The position numbers and the translations under genes were made by a program. A stretch of DNA of 64,000 nucleotides from Bacteroidia bacterium (GTDB taxonomy: Bacteria; Bacteroidota; Bacteroidia; J057; RFSG01): contig JBEIHC010000001.1 of NCBI GenBank assembly GCA_040381555.1, positions 3,091-67,090 of the forward strand, written 5' to 3'. Every line of letters begins with the position of its first letter. Within the stretch, counting starts at the first letter, position 1. A model generated the notes under the pieces. The model saw only the letters and a list, made by a program, of their open reading frames with translations, had not been told where the DNA came from and did no database searches. Of this stretch, positions 5,528-64,000 are shown one piece after another.

Positions 5528-7141
5528 ATGGCAACTGTCTTTTCACTGATTTCGAAGTTTAATTTTTTCTTCCTGATTGTATTCCTTTTGGGCTTCACCA
5601 ATTTAATCTGTAGAGCACAAGGAAATGATTTGGCCATCACCAATAATATCTATTTTGATGGAGAGCCTTATCTGATATCTAAACCCAGTGAACCGAATAA
5701 GTTGACGATTGCTTGGATGGGTTTTAATTTGCCAGATGGTATTAGAATTACCATAAGAAGCCGAACGAGTACGGATGGCGGACTTTCTTGGTCGGCACCC
5801 GTATCATTACCGCATTTAGACCCTGCCTATGGCTCAGCTGACCCAACCATGGCCTATGGTCCGGATGGTACTTTGTATTTGGTCTATATTGACTACAAGA
5901 AAAACCCAGATGCCGGTAAAATTGTACTCTGTAAATCTACTGATAGTGGTCTTACTTGGAGTGGTCCAACTCCAGTGATGGATATGACCGAAGATTTTCC
6001 TGAACGACCCATCGATAGACCTTGGCTGATTGCGGATGATACAAATGGGCCTACTAGTGGCAACTTATATTTAACTTCTAAGCCTGCGCCGTGGATTCCT
6101 GCCCCGAATAGATCGTATCATAAAAGATCGACAGATGGAGGATTGACCTGGTCCGGGTTGAGGTTTGTGGATACTACGAATTATTTAATTGGCAATTTAA
6201 TTCAGCAACCTATGGCCAGCCCTATGGTATATGCTGATGGGAAATACGCTATGCTCTATCCTTCTTATGTTCCTGCTCAGAATATTTATGGAGTCTTTTA
6301 TCAGGCATTATCCGCAGATGGAGGCCAATCTTTTCAATATAATACGGCACTCGTGAATTTCCAGGGGGTGCAGGATACTAATTATAAATTAGTTTATCAT
6401 GGCATGGCTCATCCAACCGATCCGAATCAGGCAGTGCTTGTCGGCACCAGCAATGCCAATGGGGATCCGGATATCCTACTGAGCCGTACAACGGATCAAG
6501 GTGCAACTTGGGGCCCTTATGTCCGAGTGAATCAAGATGGCCTCGCAAATGGGAAAGCCCAAGATATGGTTTGGGCCGCCTATAATGAGCAGGGGCATGT
6601 AGCTGTTGTATGGCGCGATCGGAGAAATGATTCAGGCTCAGGCTTTTTTGTTTCCAGTGAAATTTATGGCGCAGTTTCCAAAGATGGAGGGGTGACTTTT
6701 CAACCTGATTTTCCGCTCACTTCTGTGCCTGCCGCATTTGATTCTATCCTGCTTGAAAGTGGGAATGATATTTTAGGAGTTGAATTTTGTGGGGATACAG
6801 TATATGCCGCTTGGGGAGATGTTCGTACAGGTAAACTCAATATTTATTTTTCCCGAAAAGTTCTAGATGGAAGCACCGCTCAGGTTCAAGTCTTGACAGA
6901 AGACTATTATCCTCCAATAAGCATGCACCCTAATCCGGTTTCAACGCAAACAAAAGTATTTTTTGCCCCTGAATATTTGGGCGGCAATTGGCAGATTCAT
7001 GATGTTCAGGGTACGCTTATGTTCTCTGGGAATATTGAGCAAGAAATTCAGCTGCTTTCAGTTGAGGGTCTGTCTGCTGGAGCCTATCTTCTTTCAGGAA
7101 ATAAAGGCAGTTTAAAGTGTACCCTAAGTTTTGTGAAATAA
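5528..7141 (+). CDS. Secreted BNR/Asp-box beta-propeller (sialidase-like fold) with a T9SS C-terminal sorting domain
   Basis: Six Asp-box motifs (STDGGLSWS, STDSGLTWS, STDGGLTWS, SADGGQSF, TTDQGATWG, SKDGGVTF). Signal peptide from MATVFSLISK... C-terminal HPNPVSTQTKVFF...GAYLL pattern. Confidence 0.8.
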   Translation: MATVFSLISKFNFFFLIVFLLGFTNLICRAQGNDLAITNNIYFDGEPYLISKPSEPNKLTIAWMGFNLPDGIRITIRSRTSTDGGLSWSAPVSLPHLDPAYGSADPTMAYGPDGTLYLVYIDYKKNPDAGKIVLCKSTDSGLTWSGPTPVMDMTEDFPERPIDRPWLIADDTNGPTSGNLYLTSKPAPWIPAPNRSYHKRSTDGGLTWSGLRFVDTTNYLIGNLIQQPMASPMVYADGKYAMLYPSYVPAQNIYGVFYQALSADGGQSFQYNTALVNFQGVQDTNYKLVYHGMAHPTDPNQAVLVGTSNANGDPDILLSRTTDQGATWGPYVRVNQDGLANGKAQDMVWAAYNEQGHVAVVWRDRRNDSGSGFFVSSEIYGAVSKDGGVTFQPDFPLTSVPAAFDSILLESGNDILGVEFCGDTVYAAWGDVRTGKLNIYFSRKVLDGSTAQVQVLTEDYYPPISMHPNPVSTQTKVFFAPEYLGGNWQIHDVQGTLMFSGNIEQEIQLLSVEGLSAGAYLLSGNKGSLKCTLSFVK

Positions 7142-12430: not shown

Positions 12431-13000
12431 ATGCAAACGCTCACTTTATCCCCTGAAACTCAAACCCTGCAAAAATTAGCAGCGGCTTGTGCCCGTCAGG
12501 ACCGGGCGTCTCAAAAAGCTTTATATGAATTTTTTAAAAATCAATTGTTCCGCGTGTGTCTGAGATATGCTGCCAATACACAGGAAGCCGAAGATTTTCT
12601 GCAGGAAGGATTTATTAAAGTGTTTAAGTCTATTCATACCTGGCAGCCCAGCGGTAACCTATTAGCTTGGATGAAGACGATTATGATTCACACTGCCTTA
12701 GAGCATCAGCGAAAATTATCCGCAAAAGTGGGCAAGGTAGAGATCTCTCAGGCAGAAAATCTTCAAGGAACAGAGGAAATACTCAGCCAAATGAGTGGAG
12801 AAGAACTGATGGAAATTATTCAGGGATTACCTGATGGATTTCGTACCGTTTTTAATCTGTATGCAGTTGAAGGGTATTCTCATGCAGAAATTGCCAGCCT
12901 CTTAAATATCTCCGAAGGAACTTCAAAGTCTCAATATTCTCGGGCAAAAAGCATTCTGAGAGATAAATGTTCACAATTGATGGAGGGTACTTTGTCATGA
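12431..13000 (+). CDS. ECF-type RNA polymerase sigma-70 factor
   Basis: Region 2 (EDFLQEGFIKVF) and region 4 HTH (GYSHAEIASLLNISEGTSKSQYSRAK). Confidence 0.9.
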   Translation: MQTLTLSPETQTLQKLAAACARQDRASQKALYEFFKNQLFRVCLRYAANTQEAEDFLQEGFIKVFKSIHTWQPSGNLLAWMKTIMIHTALEHQRKLSAKVGKVEISQAENLQGTEEILSQMSGEELMEIIQGLPDGFRTVFNLYAVEGYSHAEIASLLNISEGTSKSQYSRAKSILRDKCSQLMEGTLS

Positions 13001-35463: not shown

Positions 35464-35583
35464 TAAAGTATAAAGTTTAATAAACGAAGGGTAAATCTGG
35501 ATAGCGAAATGTCGGTTTCATTGCTATTCGGAATAGTTTTCGGCCAAACATCAAACTCTGTCTCTCCCCTCCCTGCCCTGAAA

Positions 35584-35655
35584 GGGCATTTTAGTTTGTC
35601 CTGCACTTTAGTGCAGGAAGGGTATTTTAGTTTGCCCGGCACTTCAGTGCCGGAC
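35584..35655 (-). terminator. Two tandem 36-bp hairpin modules immediately 3' of the minus-strand gene ending at 35670
   Basis: The units are gggcattttagtttgtcctgcactttagtgcaggaa and gggtattttagtttgcccggcacttcagtgccggac. The stems cctgcac/gtgcagg and ccggcac/gtgccgg differ by a compensatory pair. No U-tract follows, so the terminator role is tentative. Confidence 0.4.
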
Positions 35656-52169: not shown

Positions 52170-52180
52170 CAGAATTGCTT

Positions 52181-53464
52181 ATGAAGTATTTTTTTCGTGC
52201 ACTCGTCTTACCTATTTGTCTGATTTTTTCAGCAAACATTCTGCCTGCACAAACTCCCGATTGTGACCAAACTCCAATTGCGTGTATGTTGGACAGTCTG
52301 CTGAGCAACTATCAGTACAAGGTAAAGACCCGGATGAATAACCGAAACACAGTAAAAAATACTTTTGGGTATGCAGAAACAGATGTTCCAAGCGCTGAAC
52401 CTCAGGTAATCAAAGATAGAATGCGTCGCTTGGGTTATGAGATACCTTTGAATTACAATCCCCAAGTTCAGTCATTTATCGATTTGTATACCGTTCGTCG
52501 TCGAGATCAGGTTGAGAAAATATTAGGATTGATGCCTGTTTACTTTCCCATTTTTGAGGAAGTATTTGACAAGGCAGGTATTCCTATGGAAATTAAATAC
52601 CTTTCAATTGTGGAGAGTGCTCTCAATCCTCATGCAATTTCCAGAGTAGGAGCTACTGGTGCTTGGCAGTTCATGTATTATACTGCCCGATTGTATAATT
52701 TAAATATTGATACTTATGTCGATGAACGCCGCGATCCACACAAATCCGCCGTTGCTGCAGCAGAGTATTTTAAAAACATGTACCGTATCTACAAAGATTG
52801 GCATTTGGTTATTGCCGCTTATAATTGTGGTCCAGGAAATGTAAACAAGGCTATTCGTCGCTCTGGAGGGAAAACAAATTTTTGGGAGATTAGCCCTTAT
52901 CTACCAGCAGAAACACGGGGGTATGTGCCAGCCTTTATGGCTGCTTGTTATGTATTTAATTATTCTGCGGAACATAATCTATACGCTCAACAGGTAGATT
53001 TTTCCTACCATCAAGATACCTTACACATCGTGCAATGCAAATTGAATTTGAAAGAATTAGCGGCAACATCCGGTGTTGAATATGAATTACTCAAAAGCCT
53101 CAATCCTGAATTGAAAACGGATTTTGTGCCTTATTCTGAAAAGGGGTATGTATTGAGAGTGCCTGCTAAAATTTCACAAATTGCCGCTTCAAATCCGGAG
53201 CAAGTTTATAAGTCCAGTGTGGCTCCGGTTGAAACACCCACGCTCGCCTCCAATTCTACTGACGCATCCGATAGCCGCCAATTAGTAAGTGGAAAAGGAA
53301 ATCTTACCTATTACACAGTAAAATCAGGAGATGTGGTTGGTAATATCGCGAAGAAATATGGGGTGACAGCCTCTCAAATTGCCCAATGGAATGGTTTAAG
53401 AGCCTATCGAATTAATCCAGGACAAAGGTTAAAGATATATCCGCGTACCCAATACAAAGGATAA
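52181..53464 (+). CDS. Lytic transglycosylase (MltD-like) with a C-terminal LysM domain
   Basis: SLT motif SIVESALNPHAISRVGATGAWQFM and LysM YYTVKSGDVVGNIAKKYGVTASQIAQWNGL. Confidence 0.88.
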   Translation: MKYFFRALVLPICLIFSANILPAQTPDCDQTPIACMLDSLLSNYQYKVKTRMNNRNTVKNTFGYAETDVPSAEPQVIKDRMRRLGYEIPLNYNPQVQSFIDLYTVRRRDQVEKILGLMPVYFPIFEEVFDKAGIPMEIKYLSIVESALNPHAISRVGATGAWQFMYYTARLYNLNIDTYVDERRDPHKSAVAAAEYFKNMYRIYKDWHLVIAAYNCGPGNVNKAIRRSGGKTNFWEISPYLPAETRGYVPAFMAACYVFNYSAEHNLYAQQVDFSYHQDTLHIVQCKLNLKELAATSGVEYELLKSLNPELKTDFVPYSEKGYVLRVPAKISQIAASNPEQVYKSSVAPVETPTLASNSTDASDSRQLVSGKGNLTYYTVKSGDVVGNIAKKYGVTASQIAQWNGLRAYRINPGQRLKIYPRTQYKG

Positions 53465-53615: not shown

Positions 53616-53815
53616 GTTTAGGGTAAACTTCAGTTTAGGGTAAACTTCAGTTTAGGGTAAACCTCCGTTTAGGGTAAACTTCCGTTTAGGGTAAACTTCC
53701 GTTTAGGGTAAACTTCCGTTTAGGGTAAACCTCTGTTTAGGGTAAACCTCTGTTTAGGGTAAACCCCGGTTTAGGGTAAACCTCGGTTTAGGGTAAACTT
53801 CCGTTTAGGGTAAAC
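53616..53815. repeat. Tandem array 1: 12 perfect copies of GTTTAGGGTAAAC at a 17-bp period with pyrimidine-rich 4-nt spacers
   Basis: Cores start at 53616 and recur every 17 nt up to 53803. Spacers are ttca, ttca, ctcc, ttcc, ttcc, ttcc, ctct, ctct, cccg, ctcg, ttcc. The array ends 4 nt before the yggS stop codon. Confidence 0.97.
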
Positions 53816-53819
53816 CTTA

Positions 53820-54500
53820 CTATTTCCTTCTGCCGAAAATGGCAGATCCAATTCTCACCATTGTTGCACCCTCTGCTATCGCTATTGCATAGTCTGAACT
53901 CATTCCCATACTCAATTCTGTCAAGGACACATTTCCTCCATTCATAGAGCTTAATTCTTTCAATAGGTTTCTTAAACCTGAAAATTGAGAACGAATCAAT
54001 TGCTGATCCTCTGTCAAAGCAGCCATGCCCATTAAGCCACAAAATTGTATGTTGGGATATAAGGTGGCTTCTTCAAGAATTTTTCTGGCTTCTTCCGGGC
54101 TCATGCCAGATTTGGTCGCTTCCCCTGAAATGAATAGTTGAAGTAATACCGAAATGCTTCGATTGTTCACTGCCGCTTCTTTTTGAATCACCTGCAGTAA
54201 TTTCTCACTATCTACTGAATGAATCATATAGATAAAGGGAGCAATAAATTTTACTTTGTTCGTCTGTAAATGCCCAATCAAATGCCATCTGGCATTGGAT
54301 ATTTCTGCTTGTTTTAGCACCAATTCCTGAACTTTATTTTCTCCCAGATCTAATTGGCCTAACTCAATTACTTTCCGAATATCTTCCACCGGATAGGTTT
54401 TGCTCACTGCAATAAGCTTGACCGAATGGGGCACTCGACCGCTTAAATTTTCCAGGTTCCGGATTTTTTCCTGAACTTCCAACAAGGGATGTAGAACCAT
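53820..54500 (-). CDS. yggS: YggS family pyridoxal-phosphate homeostasis protein
   Basis: PLP-lysine context LIAVSKTYP, HLIGHLQTNKVK, and C-terminal MVRIGSAIFG. Confidence 0.9.
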   Translation of the reverse strand: MVLHPLLEVQEKIRNLENLSGRVPHSVKLIAVSKTYPVEDIRKVIELGQLDLGENKVQELVLKQAEISNARWHLIGHLQTNKVKFIAPFIYMIHSVDSEKLLQVIQKEAAVNNRSISVLLQLFISGEATKSGMSPEEARKILEEATLYPNIQFCGLMGMAALTEDQQLIRSQFSGLRNLLKELSSMNGGNVSLTELSMGMSSDYAIAIAEGATMVRIGSAIFGRRK

Positions 54501-57327: not shown

Positions 57328-57747
57328 ATGCATGGATTTAAATTATTGAGGGTGCAGGATTTATCTGTAAATTTATTTTTAGGGGTACTATTGAATTTGG
57401 TTCTTTTCCTCTTCGGATGCGGGGAGAAGCAGGCTTCAACCGTTATGGCTGCAGAATCATTTAGGCCTTTACTCAAAGAAATGCTGATTGCGGAGAGTGG
57501 GGTAGAGGCTCTGCCTTTAAGTTACACGGAAAAAAAGGAAGCTCGTGAACAGAGGTATCGGCTTATTTTTCAAAATGCAGGTATATCCGCTGAAGATTTT
57601 TTTAACAGCTTTGAGTATTATCGTATGCAACCAGAAATAATGGACACCCTGTATGCCCATATTCTGGATGAGTTAAACGAATCACTCATGCAGCAGCGTA
57701 TGACCATCAACCCAGGTTTGGATTCTAGTCTCCTCAATCGTCCATGA
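57328..57747 (+). CDS. DUF4296-like small lipoprotein
   Basis: Lipobox LFLFGCG. The family assignment, based on the FFNSFEYYRMQPEIMDTLYAHILDEL region, is from memory. Confidence 0.45.
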   Translation: MHGFKLLRVQDLSVNLFLGVLLNLVLFLFGCGEKQASTVMAAESFRPLLKEMLIAESGVEALPLSYTEKKEAREQRYRLIFQNAGISAEDFFNSFEYYRMQPEIMDTLYAHILDELNESLMQQRMTINPGLDSSLLNRP

Positions 57748-60125
57748 AGGTTTATCCTCCAGACGCAGCAGAACGCTTAGGCTTTGATACCATACTTCGG
57801 GAATTAGCGCGTTTATCGGAGACTGATCCTATCCGAGAACAATTTTTGCATCTTCAGCCCAGTCATAATCCTTTATTAATTCGGGAGAGCCTGGTTCAGA
57901 CCAAAGCCTATATGCGCTTATTGATGCAGGCTGAGTATCCCAGAGATATTGTTTTTAGAGAGATTCAGCCTTATCTGAAAAAAGCTCTTCCCCAAAATGC
58001 CTGGTTGAGTGCAGAAGAGATTTTTAGAGTCATTTTATGGTTGCGAACTTTAAGAGTGTTATTGGCTTTTATAGAAAAAAAGAAGGATGATTTTCCAGAA
58101 TTGTTGGCTTTAATTCCTGCTGCTGAGCGTCCATTTGGCTTGCAGGAATTTTTGGCGGGTCATTTTACCTCAGAAGGTCAATTAAAAGATAATGCCAGTC
58201 CTGAGTTAGGTCGCTTGCGAAAAGGTATTTTGGAAACGGGGCATAAAGTAAGGCGACTAACCGAAAAAATACACAAAGCAGCCAGGGATCAAGGCTGGTC
58301 GGATGCTCGAGAGGTAAGTATTCGCAATAATCGTCTGGTTATCCCCTTGAATGCCGATTTCAAAGGACGGATTGAAGGATTTGTGCAGGATGTTTCTCAG
58401 TCGGGACAGACTATTTTTATAGAGCCCGCGGAGGCTCTTCCGCTTAACAATGAATTGAGTTTATTGCAGCTCAAAGAGAGGCAGGAGATTATTCGAATTT
58501 TGACCGATTTGACAGATCATCTACGAGCAAAAATGCCGGAGTTGAAGGTTTGGGAAGAATGGTTACAAAAAATGGAGATTTTGCAGGCTCGGGCTAAGTT
58601 TTCGACTAAAATTCAAGCAGATATTCCCCAGTTAGATCCCTCAGGTGATTGCCTGAAAATTGTTCAAGGCCGAAATCCATTACTAGTTCTGCAAATTCAG
58701 CAGGCGGTTGTGCCTTTAGATTTAGATTTGAACCGTCAGCAAAGGATATTATTGATTTCGGGACCGAATGCGGGCGGGAAATCTGTTGCGTTAAAAACGG
58801 CTGGGATATTACAATGGATGGTACAATGCGGATTACCAGTTCCCGCCGATTCCTCTTCCATTTTTCCTGTATTAGCTTCTTTGTTTACAGTTGTAGGGGA
58901 TGGGCAGTCGATTGAAAATGATCTAAGTACTTATACGGCACATTTAAGTCATATGCGGTATTTGTTGGAGCGAGCCCATGAGTCCTCTTTATTTTTGATA
59001 GATGAGTTTGGTTCGGGAACGGATCCCCGTTCAGGAGGACCCATTGCAGTGGCTTTGTTGGAGGCGCTCGTTGAACAAGGCGCGCTTGGTATTGTTACAA
59101 CACATTATAGTGATTTAAAGCAACTTGCGCGTCGAAATCCTGCTGTTCGGAATGCTGCCATGCATTTTGATTTGAAAGATTTTAAGCCTTCTTATCAGCT
59201 GGAAATGGGGCATGCCGGAAGTAGTTATGCTTTTGAAATTGCCCGGAAAGCCGGAATTCCGGAATCTGTACTTCGAAGGGGAAAGACCCTAATGGGAAAG
59301 GCACCTGCGGAAACGGAAGAATTATTAACCGCCTTAAATCGAGACAAGGAAGAGATACTTAAGCTACAGGAGAAATTAGGAATTGAATCTCTGGAGAATC
59401 AAAAAATAAGGGATAAATTAAATCAGGCGGAAAGAGAAGCCAAGGAGAAAGTCAGGAAACTAATTGCCGATGCACGCGAGCAGGCTAGGGGAATGTTAAC
59501 CGAAGCTTCCAAAAAAATTGGAGAATTAGTTCAGGAAACGAGGGAGAAGCAATTAGAAAAAAAGGTTGCCAAAAGCATACAGAAGGAATTGATGAGTTTT
59601 ATTCCGGATATTGATCAGGGAGAGGAAGTTTTTCTGGAGCCAATACCTGGATTTAAAGAAGTAATCGGAGTAGATCCTGTTATAGGAGATCGGGTAAAAT
59701 GGTTCAGTACCGGTGCAATTGGTAGGGTGCTGGATATTCTGAATGGAAGATTTGTTATTGCCTTTGGAGATATTCGAACCTCTTTGAAAAGAGAAGAGAT
59801 TATTCTCTTAAAAACGGAAGAAGATATTTCTAAAATTAAGGTAGAAATTTCTGCGCAAACTCGAGCTGATCATAAAATGAATGCGACAATCACTTTGGAT
59901 ATTCGGGGTCAAAGAATGGAACCTGCGCAATTGATGTTGCAAAAATTTCTAGATGATGCTTTTGTGAATGGCTTGCCTTTCGTTCATATTATCCATGGAA
60001 AGGGAAATGGGATTTTAAGAACCATGACTCGGGATATGTTGAAACGGGCACCTGGGGTGAAGCGGGTAGAAGAACCGCCCATTGAGCAGGGCGGGGCAGG
60101 GGCAACGGATGCTTATTTTAATTGA
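57744..60125 (+). CDS. mutS2: Endonuclease MutS2 (MutS domain V plus C-terminal Smr)
   Basis: Walker A GPNAGGKS, DEFGSGTDP, and a C-terminal Smr domain (LDIRGQRMEPA...IIHGKGNGILR). Confidence 0.93.
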   Translation: MKVYPPDAAERLGFDTILRELARLSETDPIREQFLHLQPSHNPLLIRESLVQTKAYMRLLMQAEYPRDIVFREIQPYLKKALPQNAWLSAEEIFRVILWLRTLRVLLAFIEKKKDDFPELLALIPAAERPFGLQEFLAGHFTSEGQLKDNASPELGRLRKGILETGHKVRRLTEKIHKAARDQGWSDAREVSIRNNRLVIPLNADFKGRIEGFVQDVSQSGQTIFIEPAEALPLNNELSLLQLKERQEIIRILTDLTDHLRAKMPELKVWEEWLQKMEILQARAKFSTKIQADIPQLDPSGDCLKIVQGRNPLLVLQIQQAVVPLDLDLNRQQRILLISGPNAGGKSVALKTAGILQWMVQCGLPVPADSSSIFPVLASLFTVVGDGQSIENDLSTYTAHLSHMRYLLERAHESSLFLIDEFGSGTDPRSGGPIAVALLEALVEQGALGIVTTHYSDLKQLARRNPAVRNAAMHFDLKDFKPSYQLEMGHAGSSYAFEIARKAGIPESVLRRGKTLMGKAPAETEELLTALNRDKEEILKLQEKLGIESLENQKIRDKLNQAEREAKEKVRKLIADAREQARGMLTEASKKIGELVQETREKQLEKKVAKSIQKELMSFIPDIDQGEEVFLEPIPGFKEVIGVDPVIGDRVKWFSTGAIGRVLDILNGRFVIAFGDIRTSLKREEIILLKTEEDISKIKVEISAQTRADHKMNATITLDIRGQRMEPAQLMLQKFLDDAFVNGLPFVHIIHGKGNGILRTMTRDMLKRAPGVKRVEEPPIEQGGAGATDAYFN

Positions 60126-60191
60126 TTTTTTGGGGGTATTCCCCAATACCTGACTCGTATTTTTTTGAACCCAACTCTTGACCTCTAATAG

Positions 60192-60391
60192 GTTTAGGGT
60201 AAACTGAGGTTTAGGGTAAACGGAAGTTTAGGGTAAACGGGAGTTTAGGGTAAACGGAGGTTTAGGGTAAACGGAAGTTTAGGGTAAACGGGAGTTTAGG
60301 GTAAACTGAGGTTTAGGGTAAACGGAAGTTTAGGGTAAACGGAAGTTTAGGGTAAACGGGAGTTTAGGGTAAACGGAGGTTTAGGGTAAAC
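60192..60391. repeat. Tandem array 2: 12 perfect copies of GTTTAGGGTAAAC at a 17-bp period with purine-rich 4-nt spacers
   Basis: Cores start at 60192 and recur every 17 nt up to 60379. Spacers are tgag, ggaa, ggga, ggag, ggaa, ggga, tgag, ggaa, ggaa, ggga, ggag. The array lies between the mutS2 stop (60125) and the adhesin ATG (60484). Confidence 0.97.
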
Positions 60392-60464
60392 CCTCCATCT
60401 GAACCGTCCACCATTCTATTCAGACCATTCAAATGCCTGAGTATTACAGCGTGAGATTAATTTG

Positions 60465-60472
60465 TAAATTTG
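60465..60472 (+). promoter_or_regulatory. Bacteroidota -7 box candidate (TAAATTTG)
   Basis: Matches TAnnTTTG and ends 11 nt before the ATG at 60484. Confidence 0.35.
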
Positions 60473-60483
60473 ATTGATATACA

Positions 60484-63400
60484 ATGATTGCTATCCCCTA
60501 TATAGAATCCATTATCCCATTACGCCAAATTTATTGGCGGTTTTGGCTATTGGTTTCGATATTGGGAATTGGGGGGTTAAGTTTAAATCCTGTTAAAGCT
60601 CAAGTTACTGCTGGAGATTGTGGTGCCGCAGTTCCGGTTTGCACGAATTTGAATTTTCAAATCAGTCCGAATGGATTTGGTTCTCTGAATGAGTTGGGGA
60701 TTGGTACGATTAGTAATCCTTCCATTAATCCAGCGAGTGGAAATATGGGATGCCTATTAGCGGGAGAACAAAATTCAACTTGGGTTCTCGTTAATATTGC
60801 TCAATCTGGTACTTTACAATTTAGTTTTGGCAGCCCGGGTCCTGTTCAATGTTTTGACTGGATAATGTGGCGTTATACCCCCGCAACCTGTAATCAAATT
60901 TTAAACAATACAATAGCACCTATTCGCTGTAATTGGAATTCTCCTTGCAATTCATTCACCGGCATGGCCTCTCCAGTTCCCCAGGGTGGAAACTCCACTA
61001 ATTTCGAACCTCCTTTACCTGTGCTATGTGGTGAGCAGTATTTGGTTTGTTTTTCCAACTATAGTTCTGCGGTTACTTCTGTTCCCTTGAACTTTTTTGG
61101 TACTGCAGTAGTAAGCTGTTCCCCAACCAATATAATGACGGTGACTGCTAGTCCTAATCAAATCTGTTCAGGAGCGTCCACCACTTTAAATGCCAGTGGA
61201 GGGTCCAATTATACTTGGTCACCAGCTACAGGACTATCTTCTACCACAGGTTCCCCTGTAACTGCAACTCCGACATCCACAACCACTTACACAGTGACGG
61301 GTCAAAATGGCTGTGGTACAGTGAGCCAGTCTGTAGTGGTGACTGTTATTCCTGCACCCATTATTTCAGTTAGTACGACCATTCCTACCGTTTGTCTTCC
61401 CTGCAATGGGTCCGCATTCGCTTCTGTATCAGGGGCAACTCCCCCCATTTTATATAGTTGGTCACCGACAGGAGGGAATCAACCTACTGCGAATAATCTG
61501 TGCCCAGGTACCTATACCCTAACCATCAATGCTGGTGGGTGTGTAGGGTCTCAAACGGTTGTACTACCTGAGCCTTATATCATTCGTGGTACTTTCGCTA
61601 CTACTCCTGCTGATTGTGGATTAAATAATGGAACTGCAACAGTTTTTAATATCACCGGAGCAGTATCGCCCTATACGGTAACTTGGAGTACCTCTCCCGT
61701 TCAATCGGGAAATACAGCTACAGGATTGCCTTCGGGCAATTATACTGTCACCATTCTGGATGCTAATAATTGTCGTAAGGATACCTTCATTTTTGTTCCC
61801 CTAAATTCCAATTTGAATGCAACTACAGGCAGTACTCCATTGAGTTGTCCCAATTCTACGGATGCGACCGTCAGTGTTTCCCCTACAGGAGGGACACCAG
61901 TTTATACAATAACCTGGAATACCACTCCTGTGCAATCGGGATTAACAGCCACAGGATTGGGTGTCGGAAATTATACTGCCACTATTACCGATCAAAATAA
62001 TTGTTCTATCATTCGTTTGGTTCAAATAGTTAGACCACCCGGAATGACGCTTACTTCCACCTATATACCGGTGAGTTGTTATAATGCTTCAGACGGAATG
62101 CTATCTGTTGTGCCCGGCAACACAATTGGTCCGTATCAATATTCTTGGAGTACAGTACCAATCCAATCCACTGCTACGGCTACTGGAGTTTCTGCTGGTT
62201 CTTATCAGGTAACCGTAACGGATGGTGTCGGTTGTTGGGAACGCGATACCATTATCCTAACGAATCCTCCTTCATTGGCTTCTACTGTAACTTATACTAT
62301 GCCCACCTGCTTTGGGGGAATTAATGGGAGTGCCGGTGTTCAAATCCCTCCTAATCTGTTAAATATTTCCTTTACTTGGAATACAGTTCCAGTGCAAACC
62401 ACTCAAGTTGCAGGTGGCTTGAGTGCTGGATCCTATTTTGTCATTGTATCTAATCGTACGGGTTGTGCAGATACGGTCAATTTTGTTCTGCCCCAACCAT
62501 CTGCCATTAATCTGAATTCAACTTTTGTGCCAGCAACCTGCTTGGGTTCTTCGAATGGTACGGCTTCTGCAATAGTAAGTGGAGGGACAGGTGCATTTTC
62601 CTATTCTTGGCAAACCATTCCGGTACAAAATACTTTAACTGCTACGGGTTTATCTGCTGGTTCGTGGAAAGTGGTTGTTACGGATGCAAACACCTGCTCA
62701 GATAGCATTTGGGCAAGTGTAGGGGAGTTACCAGATTCTATTTTGTTGCAATGGTCAGCTACTCCGGCAACTTGTAGGCTAGATTCCAATGGAACCGCCA
62801 GTGTTCAAGTCGTGAATGGAAGTGGGGTATATCAATATTTATGGTTTACCCAACCCACACAAACCACCCAAACCGCGACTGGATTAAGCCCAGGTTCTTA
62901 TCGGGTTCGGGTCGTGAATTCTGCTGGATGTGTGGGGTCGACATGGGCAACTGTACCGGTTGTACCCGCAATGACATTTGTCACCCAGGCATTTGATCCA
63001 TCCTGTTTTGGGGGGAATGACGGTCAAGTACAAGTTCAAGTTAGCAATGGTGCTCCGAGTTACAGCTATACATGGAACACCAGCCCTATTCAAACTAGTT
63101 CGACAGCAACAGGCTTAAGTTCTGGTACCTGGAATGTGATCGTTCGGGATGCTAATAATTGCAGAGATACGCTCCTTATTGCTCTAAATCAGCCACCGTT
63201 ATTGACAATTACAGCAACCGCCAGTCCAGCCTCTTGCTATGGTCGCTCCGATGGTGCTGCTGTTTCATTCGCCTCGGGTGGGACTCCCGGGTATTCTTAT
63301 ACTTGGAACACGAGTCCAATTCAGTCTTCCAATTTGGCAACTGGACTTACCGCAGGAGTATATACAGTTACCGCAAGAGATCAACAAAATTGTATTGCCT

Positions 63401-64000
63401 CTGCCCAAATATGGGTACAGCAACCTGCAGATATAATCGTTACCACAAACTATACGATGCCCTTATGTTACCAGGGAATGGATGGGGAAATGAGCGCACT
63501 TGCTTCTGGTGGGCTTGCACCTTATATTTATTTATGGAGTAATGGCCAGACAGGGGCTTTGGCCACCGGATTAAGTACAGGTACTTGGTCTGTTATTGTA
63601 ACAGATGCTTTGGGTTGTTCCGCAGTGCATTCCCGATTTTTGCCCGAACCAAGTGAGTTGTTGATTCAGATGAGTGGTATTGATTTAACCTGCGATGTAC
63701 CTCCTGATAATGGCATTGCATCGGTATTTGCTAGCGGAGCTTCAGCGCCTTACACCTATTTATGGAATGGAGGAGGGCAAGTAACTCAGGCTTGGAATAC
63801 AGGTATGCCTGCGGGCACTTGGACAGTTGTCGTAAGTGATCGAAATAATTGCAGTAAAACAGATAGTGTTATTTTAACTGCTCCGGTTTTACCTGTAGCT
63901 TTAACGGCACCCGATACCTATAAATGTGCGGGCACTGGCATGGTTCCCCTGCAAGGATGGGGTAGTGGAGGAGCAGCACCTTATTCTTATTTATGGTTCC
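60484..64000 (+). CDS. Very large SprB-repeat cell-surface protein (gliding/adhesin-like), 3'-truncated by the window edge
   Basis: Hand translation gives an uninterrupted frame from the ATG at 60484 to the end of the window (over 1170 codons). It has a signal/TM segment and a Cys-rich N-terminal domain. It then has at least 13 units of about 76 aa of the form C..(S/N)DG......GG..PY.Y.W......T..ATGL.AG.Y.V.V.D..GC. It is absent from the ORF track because no stop falls within the window. Confidence 0.9.
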   Translation, partial: MIAIPYIESIIPLRQIYWRFWLLVSILGIGGLSLNPVKAQVTAGDCGAAVPVCTNLNFQISPNGFGSLNELGIGTISNPSINPASGNMGCLLAGEQNSTWVLVNIAQSGTLQFSFGSPGPVQCFDWIMWRYTPATCNQILNNTIAPIRCNWNSPCNSFTGMASPVPQGGNSTNFEPPLPVLCGEQYLVCFSNYSSAVTSVPLNFFGTAVVSCSPTNIMTVTASPNQICSGASTTLNASGGSNYTWSPATGLSSTTGSPVTATPTSTTTYTVTGQNGCGTVSQSVVVTVIPAPIISVSTTIPTVCLPCNGSAFASVSGATPPILYSWSPTGGNQPTANNLCPGTYTLTINAGGCVGSQTVVLPEPYIIRGTFATTPADCGLNNGTATVFNITGAVSPYTVTWSTSPVQSGNTATGLPSGNYTVTILDANNCRKDTFIFVPLNSNLNATTGSTPLSCPNSTDATVSVSPTGGTPVYTITWNTTPVQSGLTATGLGVGNYTATITDQNNCSIIRLVQIVRPPGMTLTSTYIPVSCYNASDGMLSVVPGNTIGPYQYSWSTVPIQSTATATGVSAGSYQVTVTDGVGCWERDTIILTNPPSLASTVTYTMPTCFGGINGSAGVQIPPNLLNISFTWNTVPVQTTQVAGGLSAGSYFVIVSNRTGCADTVNFVLPQPSAINLNSTFVPATCLGSSNGTASAIVSGGTGAFSYSWQTIPVQNTLTATGLSAGSWKVVVTDANTCSDSIWASVGELPDSILLQWSATPATCRLDSNGTASVQVVNGSGVYQYLWFTQPTQTTQTATGLSPGSYRVRVVNSAGCVGSTWATVPVVPAMTFVTQAFDPSCFGGNDGQVQVQVSNGAPSYSYTWNTSPIQTSSTATGLSSGTWNVIVRDANNCRDTLLIALNQPPLLTITATASPASCYGRSDGAAVSFASGGTPGYSYTWNTSPIQSSNLATGLTAGVYTVTARDQQNCIASAQIWVQQPADIIVTTNYTMPLCYQGMDGEMSALASGGLAPYIYLWSNGQTGALATGLSTGTWSVIVTDALGCSAVHSRFLPEPSELLIQMSGIDLTCDVPPDNGIASVFASGASAPYTYLWNGGGQVTQAWNTGMPAGTWTVVVSDRNNCSKTDSVILTAPVLPVALTAPDTYKCAGTGMVPLQGWGSGGAAPYSYLWF

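Follow-up and report, generated by a model that had tools for sequence, protein, structure and literature searches.

Repetitive extragenic palindromic (REP) sequences are palindromes of 20–40 bp that carry a GTAG or CGTC tag, occur in more than 100 copies per genome, alternate in orientation within bacterial interspersed mosaic elements (BIMEs) and are linked to REP-associated tyrosine transposases (RAYTs) (PMC2817692, PMC3733652, PMC3333891). The BrickBuilt elements of Porphyromonas gingivalis consist of 23-nt units without spacers, have leader and tail subunits, inverted-repeat ends and promoter activity, and are present in 19 copies per genome at 49–591 nt from coding sequences (PMC4596501). 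Arrays of pure TAACTGA heptamers, found in Beggiatoaceae, Cyanobacteria and Bacteroidetes, lie mostly just 5′ of start codons (PMC4679880). Here, we examined a tandem array of 13-bp palindromes, array 2, which lies between mutS2 and the gene for an SprB-like adhesin in 64,000 nt of a Bacteroidia bacterium (contig JBEIHC010000001.1; this whole 64-kb stretch is called the window), together with array 1, which has the same core and lies further 5′. We read array 2, with confidence about evenly balanced between yes and no, as one locus of a lineage-specific minisatellite, or variable-number tandem repeat (VNTR), family of palindromic units that occupies at least three neighbouring intergenic regions.

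Array architecture and unit-number variation among strains

The two arrays in the window are as follows:

53616..53815, + strand: array 1, 12 units with the same core as array 2 and pyrimidine spacers (YYCN), between the convergent 3′ ends of the SLT-LysM and yggS genes
60192..60391, + strand: array 2, 12 units of 17 bp, built from a 13-bp core (GTTTA-GGG-TAAAC) and a 4-nt purine spacer (KGRR)

Array 2 holds 12 perfect GTTTAGGGTAAAC cores in a strict 17-bp register over 200 bp, and Tandem Repeats Finder (TRF) reports a period of 17, 11.8 copies and a score of 337. Its spacers, in order, are tgag, ggaa, ggga, ggag, ggaa, ggga, tgag, ggaa, ggaa, ggga and ggag, with the block tgag-ggaa-ggga-ggag appearing twice, the second time with one additional ggaa. 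Core number, period, length and spacer order are exactly those given in a preliminary description of this DNA, which had also noted the partly higher-order spacer pattern. The core is a 5-3-5 palindrome, with 5-bp arms around a 3-bp centre, that reaches at most 15 bp when the flanking G/C is included; within each array all units are direct, and the GGG centre and the spacer polarity are constant. Allowing up to two mismatches, we found 25 core matches in the window, where shuffled sequence gives an expectation of 1.78 and none of 100 shuffles comes to 25; 24 of the 25 are the units of the two arrays. The GTTxy-NNN-y'x'AAC palindromes likewise number 24, all inside the arrays and 0 elsewhere in the window.

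In array 1, the spacers run ttca, ttca, ctcc, ttcc, ttcc, ttcc, ctct, ctct, cccg, ctcg and ttcc, and the array terminates 4 nt from the yggS stop codon. The array 2 spacers (KGRR) are reverse complements of the array 1 spacers (YYCN), with GGG on the + strand in both. Exact identity between the two arrays extends over at most 15 bp in direct and 14 bp in inverted orientation; so short an exact match probably does not allow efficient recombination by RecA, a process that would otherwise remove the 6.4-kb segment.

We compared relatives at syntenic loci retrieved through their MutS2 homologues, ranked by MutS2 identity, with unit numbers derived from metagenome assemblies:

Window, MutS2 identity 100%: array 1, 12 units; array 2, 12 units
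L001, 99.5%: array 1 and array 2 both present, at the contig ends
L090, 98.4%: array 1, 15 perfect cores; array 2, at least 8 units, after which the contig ends
L091 and L093, 96%: array 1, 4 units (in L093; N gap in L091); array 2, 3 units
L088, 95.3% (~90% nucleotide identity): array 1, 5 units; array 2, none
L002–L006, 59–76%: array 1, none; array 2, none; gene order kept

Array 2 was confined to strains of 96% MutS2 identity or more and has 3 to 12 units there, the count of 3 coming from two independent assemblies (L091 and L093). Judged by this distribution, array 2 was gained within that clade and has grown there from 3 to 12 units, and array 1 is the older locus, since L088 has array 1 and not array 2. 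On the same comparison, array 2 is a young, strain-variable feature and not a conserved component of the adhesin promoter; L088 retains the promoter block despite having no array 2. The strains show, at the level of assembled sequence, that the arrays gain and lose whole 17-bp units fast. The strain-to-strain variation anticipated in the preliminary description is borne out for array 2 and, if our reading is true, its values of 0, 3, at least 8 and 12 units over ~5% protein divergence form a natural time series of minisatellite birth and growth.

The units themselves record this turnover. Five of the six spacer types of array 1 are common to the window and L090, and the spacer run ggaa-ggga-ggag-ggaa is common between strains in array 2; spacer types and runs shared in shuffled order are the footprint of whole-unit duplication and loss. 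Among the relatives, the array 2 centres are GAG, GGG and GGG in L091 and L093, and the array 1 centres of L093 are GTG, GTG, GGG and GGG, with a last unit ending AAAG; of the five array 1 units of L088, three are GTTTAGTGTAAAC, one has a GGG centre and one, at the edge, ends in G.

Because the arrays recur in independent assemblies (L001, L090, L091, L092 and L093), they are not assembly artefacts. The short-read Logan contigs L001, L089 and L092 start or end exactly inside arrays (L001, of 6,434 bp, runs from within array 1 to within array 2), and the L091 scaffold has N gaps at the arrays (L091:5960-6058 and 12546-12649); the arrays thus fragment assemblies systematically, and unit numbers from such data are unreliable. 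The equal copy number of the two arrays, 12 and 12, which had been remarked on before, holds in this assembly only and is probably coincidental or assembly-limited (L090 has 15 and at least 8). As one half of what would speak against a regulatory role, the preliminary description had named the lack of any array in relatives; we observed such a lack in the ~90%-nucleotide sister and in the 59–76% relatives and not at 96% MutS2 identity or above, and L005 has a different 16-bp array.

In L088, L089, L091 and L093, a third locus occupies the gap that follows the SprB-like gene's stop codon and precedes the ABC2 gene; the window ends short of this gap, and the locus is known from the relatives:

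L088:18313-18346, L089:12322-12355, L091:18013-18046 and L093:12457-12490: third locus, 2 units

Its sequence is cttcg-GTTAGATACTAAC-cccg-GTTAGAGGCTAAC-ccag, with a period of 17, YYCN spacers, centres ATA and AGG, and a left flank (cttcg) identical to that of array 1. The arms, GTTAG/CTAAC, stand two compensatory pairs apart from GTTTA/TAAAC. The orthologous position holds one GTTAAGTGTTAAC in L003 and TGTGTTAGATAAACACA in L002. All three loci are 3′ of stop codons, namely those of yggS and the SLT-LysM gene, of mutS2 and of the SprB-like gene.

More distant relatives have repeats of their own in the mutS2/SprB-like gap. L005 (67% identity) carries the different 16-bp array, whose core is palindromic, 5.8 copies of GCTTGGTCCAAGTCCN at L005:9585-9677, in which two units (CTAGGTACTAG) stay palindromic through one compensatory arm change. 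L002 and L003 hold two clear and one doubtful degenerate GTTTRCAGCAYAC unit, whose likeness to the core, at 9 of 13 positions, is only suggestive. At the start of the L005 contig (L005:1-49), we also observed a 23-bp tandem repeat holding the palindrome TATGC-G-GCATA. In the sister lineage L088, the gap contains an unrelated T-rich stretch of ~150 bp (L088:12383-12540); within it, CTGAGTGTAAGCC agrees with the GTG-type core in 10 of 13 positions and could be either a unit in decay or a proto unit.

In a MutS2 search of the genome contig collection, identity was 38% or less among the matches listed, which points to an uncultured Bacteroidota lineage. Exact-pattern scans of genome, metagenome and viral contig collections (core dimer; degenerate centre) returned 0, in collections that do not cover the organism; the Joint Genome Institute (JGI) contig behind L087 holds the pattern even though the metagenome scan gave 0, so these zeros are not evidence of absence. 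Neither the core sequence nor 17-bp tandem repeats turned up in a literature search.

Constraint on the palindrome and a proposed origin

Counting minimum change events across 59 non-redundant units, we found that the spacers account for at least 12, the centre base for 2 (GTG and GAG) and the outermost base of an edge unit for 1, while the inner arms have 0. Under uniform change, so few core events would be expected with P = 6e-6. The period is 17 in all 59 units, with no indel, and the arms are unchanged within arrays and differ between loci only by compensatory pairs. Such a pattern would reflect selection or a mechanistic requirement on palindromy itself, possibly exerted through hairpins in single-stranded DNA or RNA, hairpin-dependent amplification or template-switch correction.

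Three further elements lie near array 2 or at its end:

60130..60146, + strand: terminator-like hairpin TTGGGGGTATTCCCCAA, 5 nt past the mutS2 stop codon and followed a few bases on by a T-run (from the predicted fold), kept in L090, L091 and L093
60153..60163, + strand: 11-mer ACTCGTATTTT, 28 nt 5′ of array 2
60375..60396, + strand: last spacer, last core and flank of array 2, GGAG-GTTTAGGGTAAAC-CCTCC, an extended palindrome with a 9-bp stem (from predicted folds)

The units would stem from small terminator-like hairpins at operon boundaries, with an ancestral extended hairpin of the form RRRR-GTTTA-GGG-TAAAC-YYYY. We propose GGAG-GTTTAGGGTAAAC-CCTCC, in which the last array 2 unit and the CCTCC flank pair into the 9-bp stem, as the ancestral hairpin from which array 2 expanded. 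Array 2 would have arisen by repeated duplication of its left arm plus core and array 1 by duplication of core plus right arm, a difference that would make the spacers of the two arrays complementary while GGG keeps its strand. Growth would proceed by slipped-strand mispairing or unequal exchange, and any function would be at most that of an operon-boundary element, either a 3′-end hairpin stack or an insulator that separates the adhesin promoter from mutS2. The 11-mer ACTCGTATTTT also lies 26 nt 5′ of array 1 in L088 (~5955-5965) and L093 (~159-169). The flank alignment scores give p of about 0.001–0.004 against shuffles, which is weak evidence; the 11-mer may be a remnant of a leader common to both arrays, and its placement hints that array 2 was seeded by a copy of array 1 plus this short leader.

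As single-stranded DNA, array 2 is predicted to form a row of TAAAC-N4-GTTTA hairpins and folds better than shuffles (z = -4.0). Several observations nevertheless weigh against a minisatellite family shaped by hairpins. The single hairpins are weak, at -0.6 to -2 kcal/mol as DNA, values on which a stable cruciform or terminator was rejected, and the RNA folds of neither array beat shuffles (array 2, + strand, z = -0.76; array 1, - strand, z = -0.32), so that a structured RNA was rejected as well. The units are not followed by a U-tract, which leaves a classical terminator role unsupported. An extended-hairpin origin predicts a purine arm 5′ of array 1, where the flank reads ttcg, and the GGG centre is invariant in the 47 units of the window and L090, an invariance that a pure hairpin-loop model would not predict. 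The view of the family's distribution is limited to ~64 kb of this genome and 12–22 kb per relative. Furthermore, a dimeric DNA-binding protein would require palindromy equally. In Rfam, nothing in the whole window matched at or above the gathering score.

The adhesin locus and competing explanations

The genes and the promoter block adjoining the arrays are as follows:

52175..53464, + strand: SLT-LysM lytic transglycosylase gene, convergent with yggS, with a 151-bp AT-rich leader before array 1
53820..54500, - strand: gene for a yggS-like pyridoxal phosphate (PLP)-binding protein, whose stop codon abuts array 1
57744..60125, + strand: mutS2 (MutS_V + Smr), the gene 5′ of array 2
60392..60483, + strand: promoter block of the SprB-like gene, from alignment, including the -7 box TAAATTTG (60465-60472) and the imperfect palindrome CCATTCAAATG (60425-60435)
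60484..64000, + strand: SprB-repeat cell-surface protein gene, running beyond the window end

The window is ordinary Bacteroidota chromosome whose predicted genes are housekeeping, and the genes around the arrays are yggS, the bat operon, a DUF4296 gene, mutS2 and the SprB-like gene. Among the window genes, we found no mobile-element, transposase, RAYT, integrase, cas, partition, ParB-like or obvious helix-turn-helix partner gene. The open reading frame 3′ of array 2 encodes an SprB-repeat protein (Pfam SprB, E=1e-54), in agreement with the preliminary description, and its orthologues have 1,759–1,897 aa and SprB, PKD and CHU_C domains. The -7 box lies 73 nt and the ATG (60484) 92 nt past array 2, exactly the distances first given. 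By alignment, the layout ..GACCGTCCA..ATTCAGACCATTCRAATG..TGTAAATTTGATT..ATG is kept in relatives, and conservation of the promoter block extends to L002, L003, L004, L005, L088, L091 and L093, whether the array is present or absent; among the 59–76% relatives, all except L006 retain a recognisable block. A palindrome within it, conserved ~30 nt 5′ of the -7 box, is perfect in L002 and L003 (CCATTCGAATGG; L002:8702-8713) and imperfect in the window as CCATTCAAATG, and could be an operator.

Other repeats came to light alongside the arrays. A convergent gap at 35582-35654 of the window holds a 36-bp unit twice, with the hairpins CCTGCAC-TTTA-GTGCAGG and CCGGCAC-TTCA-GTGCCGG, whose stems differ by a compensatory change (RNA fold z = -5.0); this looks like a tandemly duplicated terminator. 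At 182-212 of the window, downstream of a histidine-kinase gene (472-2013, - strand), lies a 16-bp direct repeat, TGTTATCACCAAGCGG and TGTTATGACCAAGCGA. In more distant Bacteroidota, low-complexity repeats of 14-bp period start at most ~20 nt past the mutS2 stop codon (L010:10381-10479, Pedobacter; L017:10380-10461, a Bacteroidia metagenome-assembled genome), and an association of repeats with mutS2 drawn from these two was judged a probable coincidence. An apparently palindromic 21-bp array in L086 turned out to be a coding repeat.

The main rival to a minisatellite family is a phased protein-binding array, in which a dimeric, sequence-specific protein binds the 13-bp palindrome and polymerises cooperatively along the 17-bp phasing. 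The arrays might then label the two ends of the 6.4-kb yggS–mutS2 segment or connect them, resembling plasmid centromere/iteron or operator arrays. A 5-3-5 palindrome is typical of helix-turn-helix dimer sites, and such a protein would suit the invariance of 47 of 47 cores, GGG centre included, beside variable spacers, the exact phasing of 59 units without an indel, and hairpins too weak for an obvious structural role. It is harder to reconcile with two arm types in the same genomes (GTTTA/TAAAC and GTTAG/CTAAC), which call for two proteins or a tolerant one, or with the GTG and GAG centres tolerated in relatives; there is also no solitary core in the 64 kb, no candidate DNA-binding or partition gene adjoins the arrays, and close relatives have array 2 absent or at only 3 units. 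We judge this explanation unlikely, although it keeps some weight. An extended version, in which the arrays are phased landing pads of a dedicated, predicted palindrome-recognising protein, act, at one operon boundary after another around the adhesin locus, as chromosomal insulators or loop anchors and tune the type IX adhesin by unit number, seems to us quite improbable. There, the palindrome would co-evolve with its protein, from which compensatory arm changes between loci would follow and, if true, it would mean strain-level VNTR-type tuning of a type IX secretion surface adhesin in an uncultured Bacteroidota lineage.

The preliminary description had taken array 2 for an upstream regulatory array, that is, a regulatory or phase-variation tract whose unit number would tune transcription of the SprB-like adhesin; a comparable case is the variable TAAA tract of Neisseria nadA, upstream of the promoter. 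What stands of this is the position next to the conserved promoter block, 73 nt from its -7 box, the difference in units between close strains, and the recurrence of 16–17-bp tandem units in this gap elsewhere (L005, and the degenerate GTTTRCAGCAYAC of L002 and L003). However, the same core is arrayed between convergent gene ends, where no promoter is expected, a related 2-unit locus follows the adhesin stop codon in relatives, the promoter block is kept without an array in L088 and L002–L004, and direct inspection of the units on both strands revealed no Bacteroidota promoter motif. We hold a tuning tract to be rather unlikely as an account of the repeats; a regulatory effect of array 2 on the adhesin is possible on sequence grounds, and such promoter tuning by array 2 specifically would not define the repeat family. 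That the G-rich + strand forms a G-quadruplex or R-loop affecting replication or transcription, as had also been suggested, is scarcely credible. The G-richness itself is confirmed (75 G and 12 C on the + strand of array 2, GC skew 0.72, with one GGG per unit), and two-tetrad (G2) motifs with short loops occur in array 2, but four runs of at least three G with loops of 1–7 nt, or of up to 12 nt on a relaxed definition, occur in neither array, matches arising only at 14-nt loops, and a canonical G-quadruplex was rejected on this basis. Moreover, array 1 has a low skew (0.19) at equal GGG spacing, GTG or GAG centres break the G-runs in up to three of five units of relatives, and the third locus has ATA and AGG. 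A mobile element carrying a minisatellite, such as a BrickBuilt-like transposable element of the miniature inverted-repeat type (MITE), or a RAYT-moved REP would account for intergenic repeats at several loci of one lineage, for ACTCGTATTTT at a similar distance 5′ of array 1 (L088, L093) and array 2, and for a SLT-LysM/yggS array 1 region ~330 bp longer in the window than the 26-bp intergenic gap of L002. We consider it very unlikely: blastn-short of the array 1 against the array 2 flanks found one 11-mer only, with no common leader or tail and no terminal inverted repeats, on which grounds a MITE with common leader and tail was rejected, and the window has no transposase, RAYT or integrase gene. 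Neither strand of either array carries a GTAG (PMC3733652) or CGTC tag, and all units are direct where the REPs of BIMEs alternate (PMC2817692). Plasmid, phage and viral collections gave no match, and a plasmid or phage origin was set aside.

Comparison with described repeat systems

A clustered regularly interspaced short palindromic repeat (CRISPR) array, with repeats of 23–47 bp and unique spacers of 21–72 bp, does not describe repeats of 13 bp with 4-nt spacers and no cas genes. Plasmid centromere and iteron arrays (parC/ParR, tubC/TubR) consist of about ten phased direct repeats of 11–20 bp, sometimes split into two clusters and probably coated cooperatively by a single protein, and sit on plasmids or phages beside the gene for that protein; by contrast, the arrays described here lie among chromosomal housekeeping genes with no partner gene (ParR, TubR or Rep). 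With the TAACTGA arrays they share an intergenic position in Bacteroidetes, near relatives with shorter, repeat-free gaps and contigs that often end inside, while differing in having a palindrome and a linker. Like BrickBuilt, they are intergenic tandem arrays of ~20-nt units at several loci in Bacteroidota, although they have no common leader or tail and no promoter motif in the units.

The likeness to bacterial VNTRs and minisatellites, such as the MIRU (mycobacterial interspersed repetitive unit)-type loci and the Yersinia minisatellites, extends further. Both consist of head-to-tail units of 10–100 bp, intergenic and strain-variable in number, whose variants are shuffled by whole-unit gain and loss, and here we found tandem units with a unit number polymorphic across 95–100% MutS2 identity. 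Unlike in VNTRs, variation is confined to the 4-nt linker and the centre base while the 13-bp palindrome is constant, and two arrays 6.4 kb apart have the same core and complementary linkers. The constraint is unusually sharp, with palindrome arms fixed and linkers and centre free. The arrays could be used as a strain-typing marker for an uncultured lineage, and their weight would rise if unit number tunes adhesin expression or if a binding protein exists.

The palindromes also recall REP sequences and BIMEs, which are likewise extragenic palindromes at 3′ ends or between convergent genes, in variable-length, lineage-specific arrays with conserved palindromy. The differences are a palindrome of 13 bp, direct repeats at a fixed 17 bp, only three clustered loci observed and no RAYT gene found in the window. 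On our best reading, the family resembles REP/BIME in position and dynamics without being a member of it and, if this is true, the REP/BIME idea of extragenic palindromes multiplied at operon boundaries would extend to Bacteroidota, with units that are far smaller and directly repeated.

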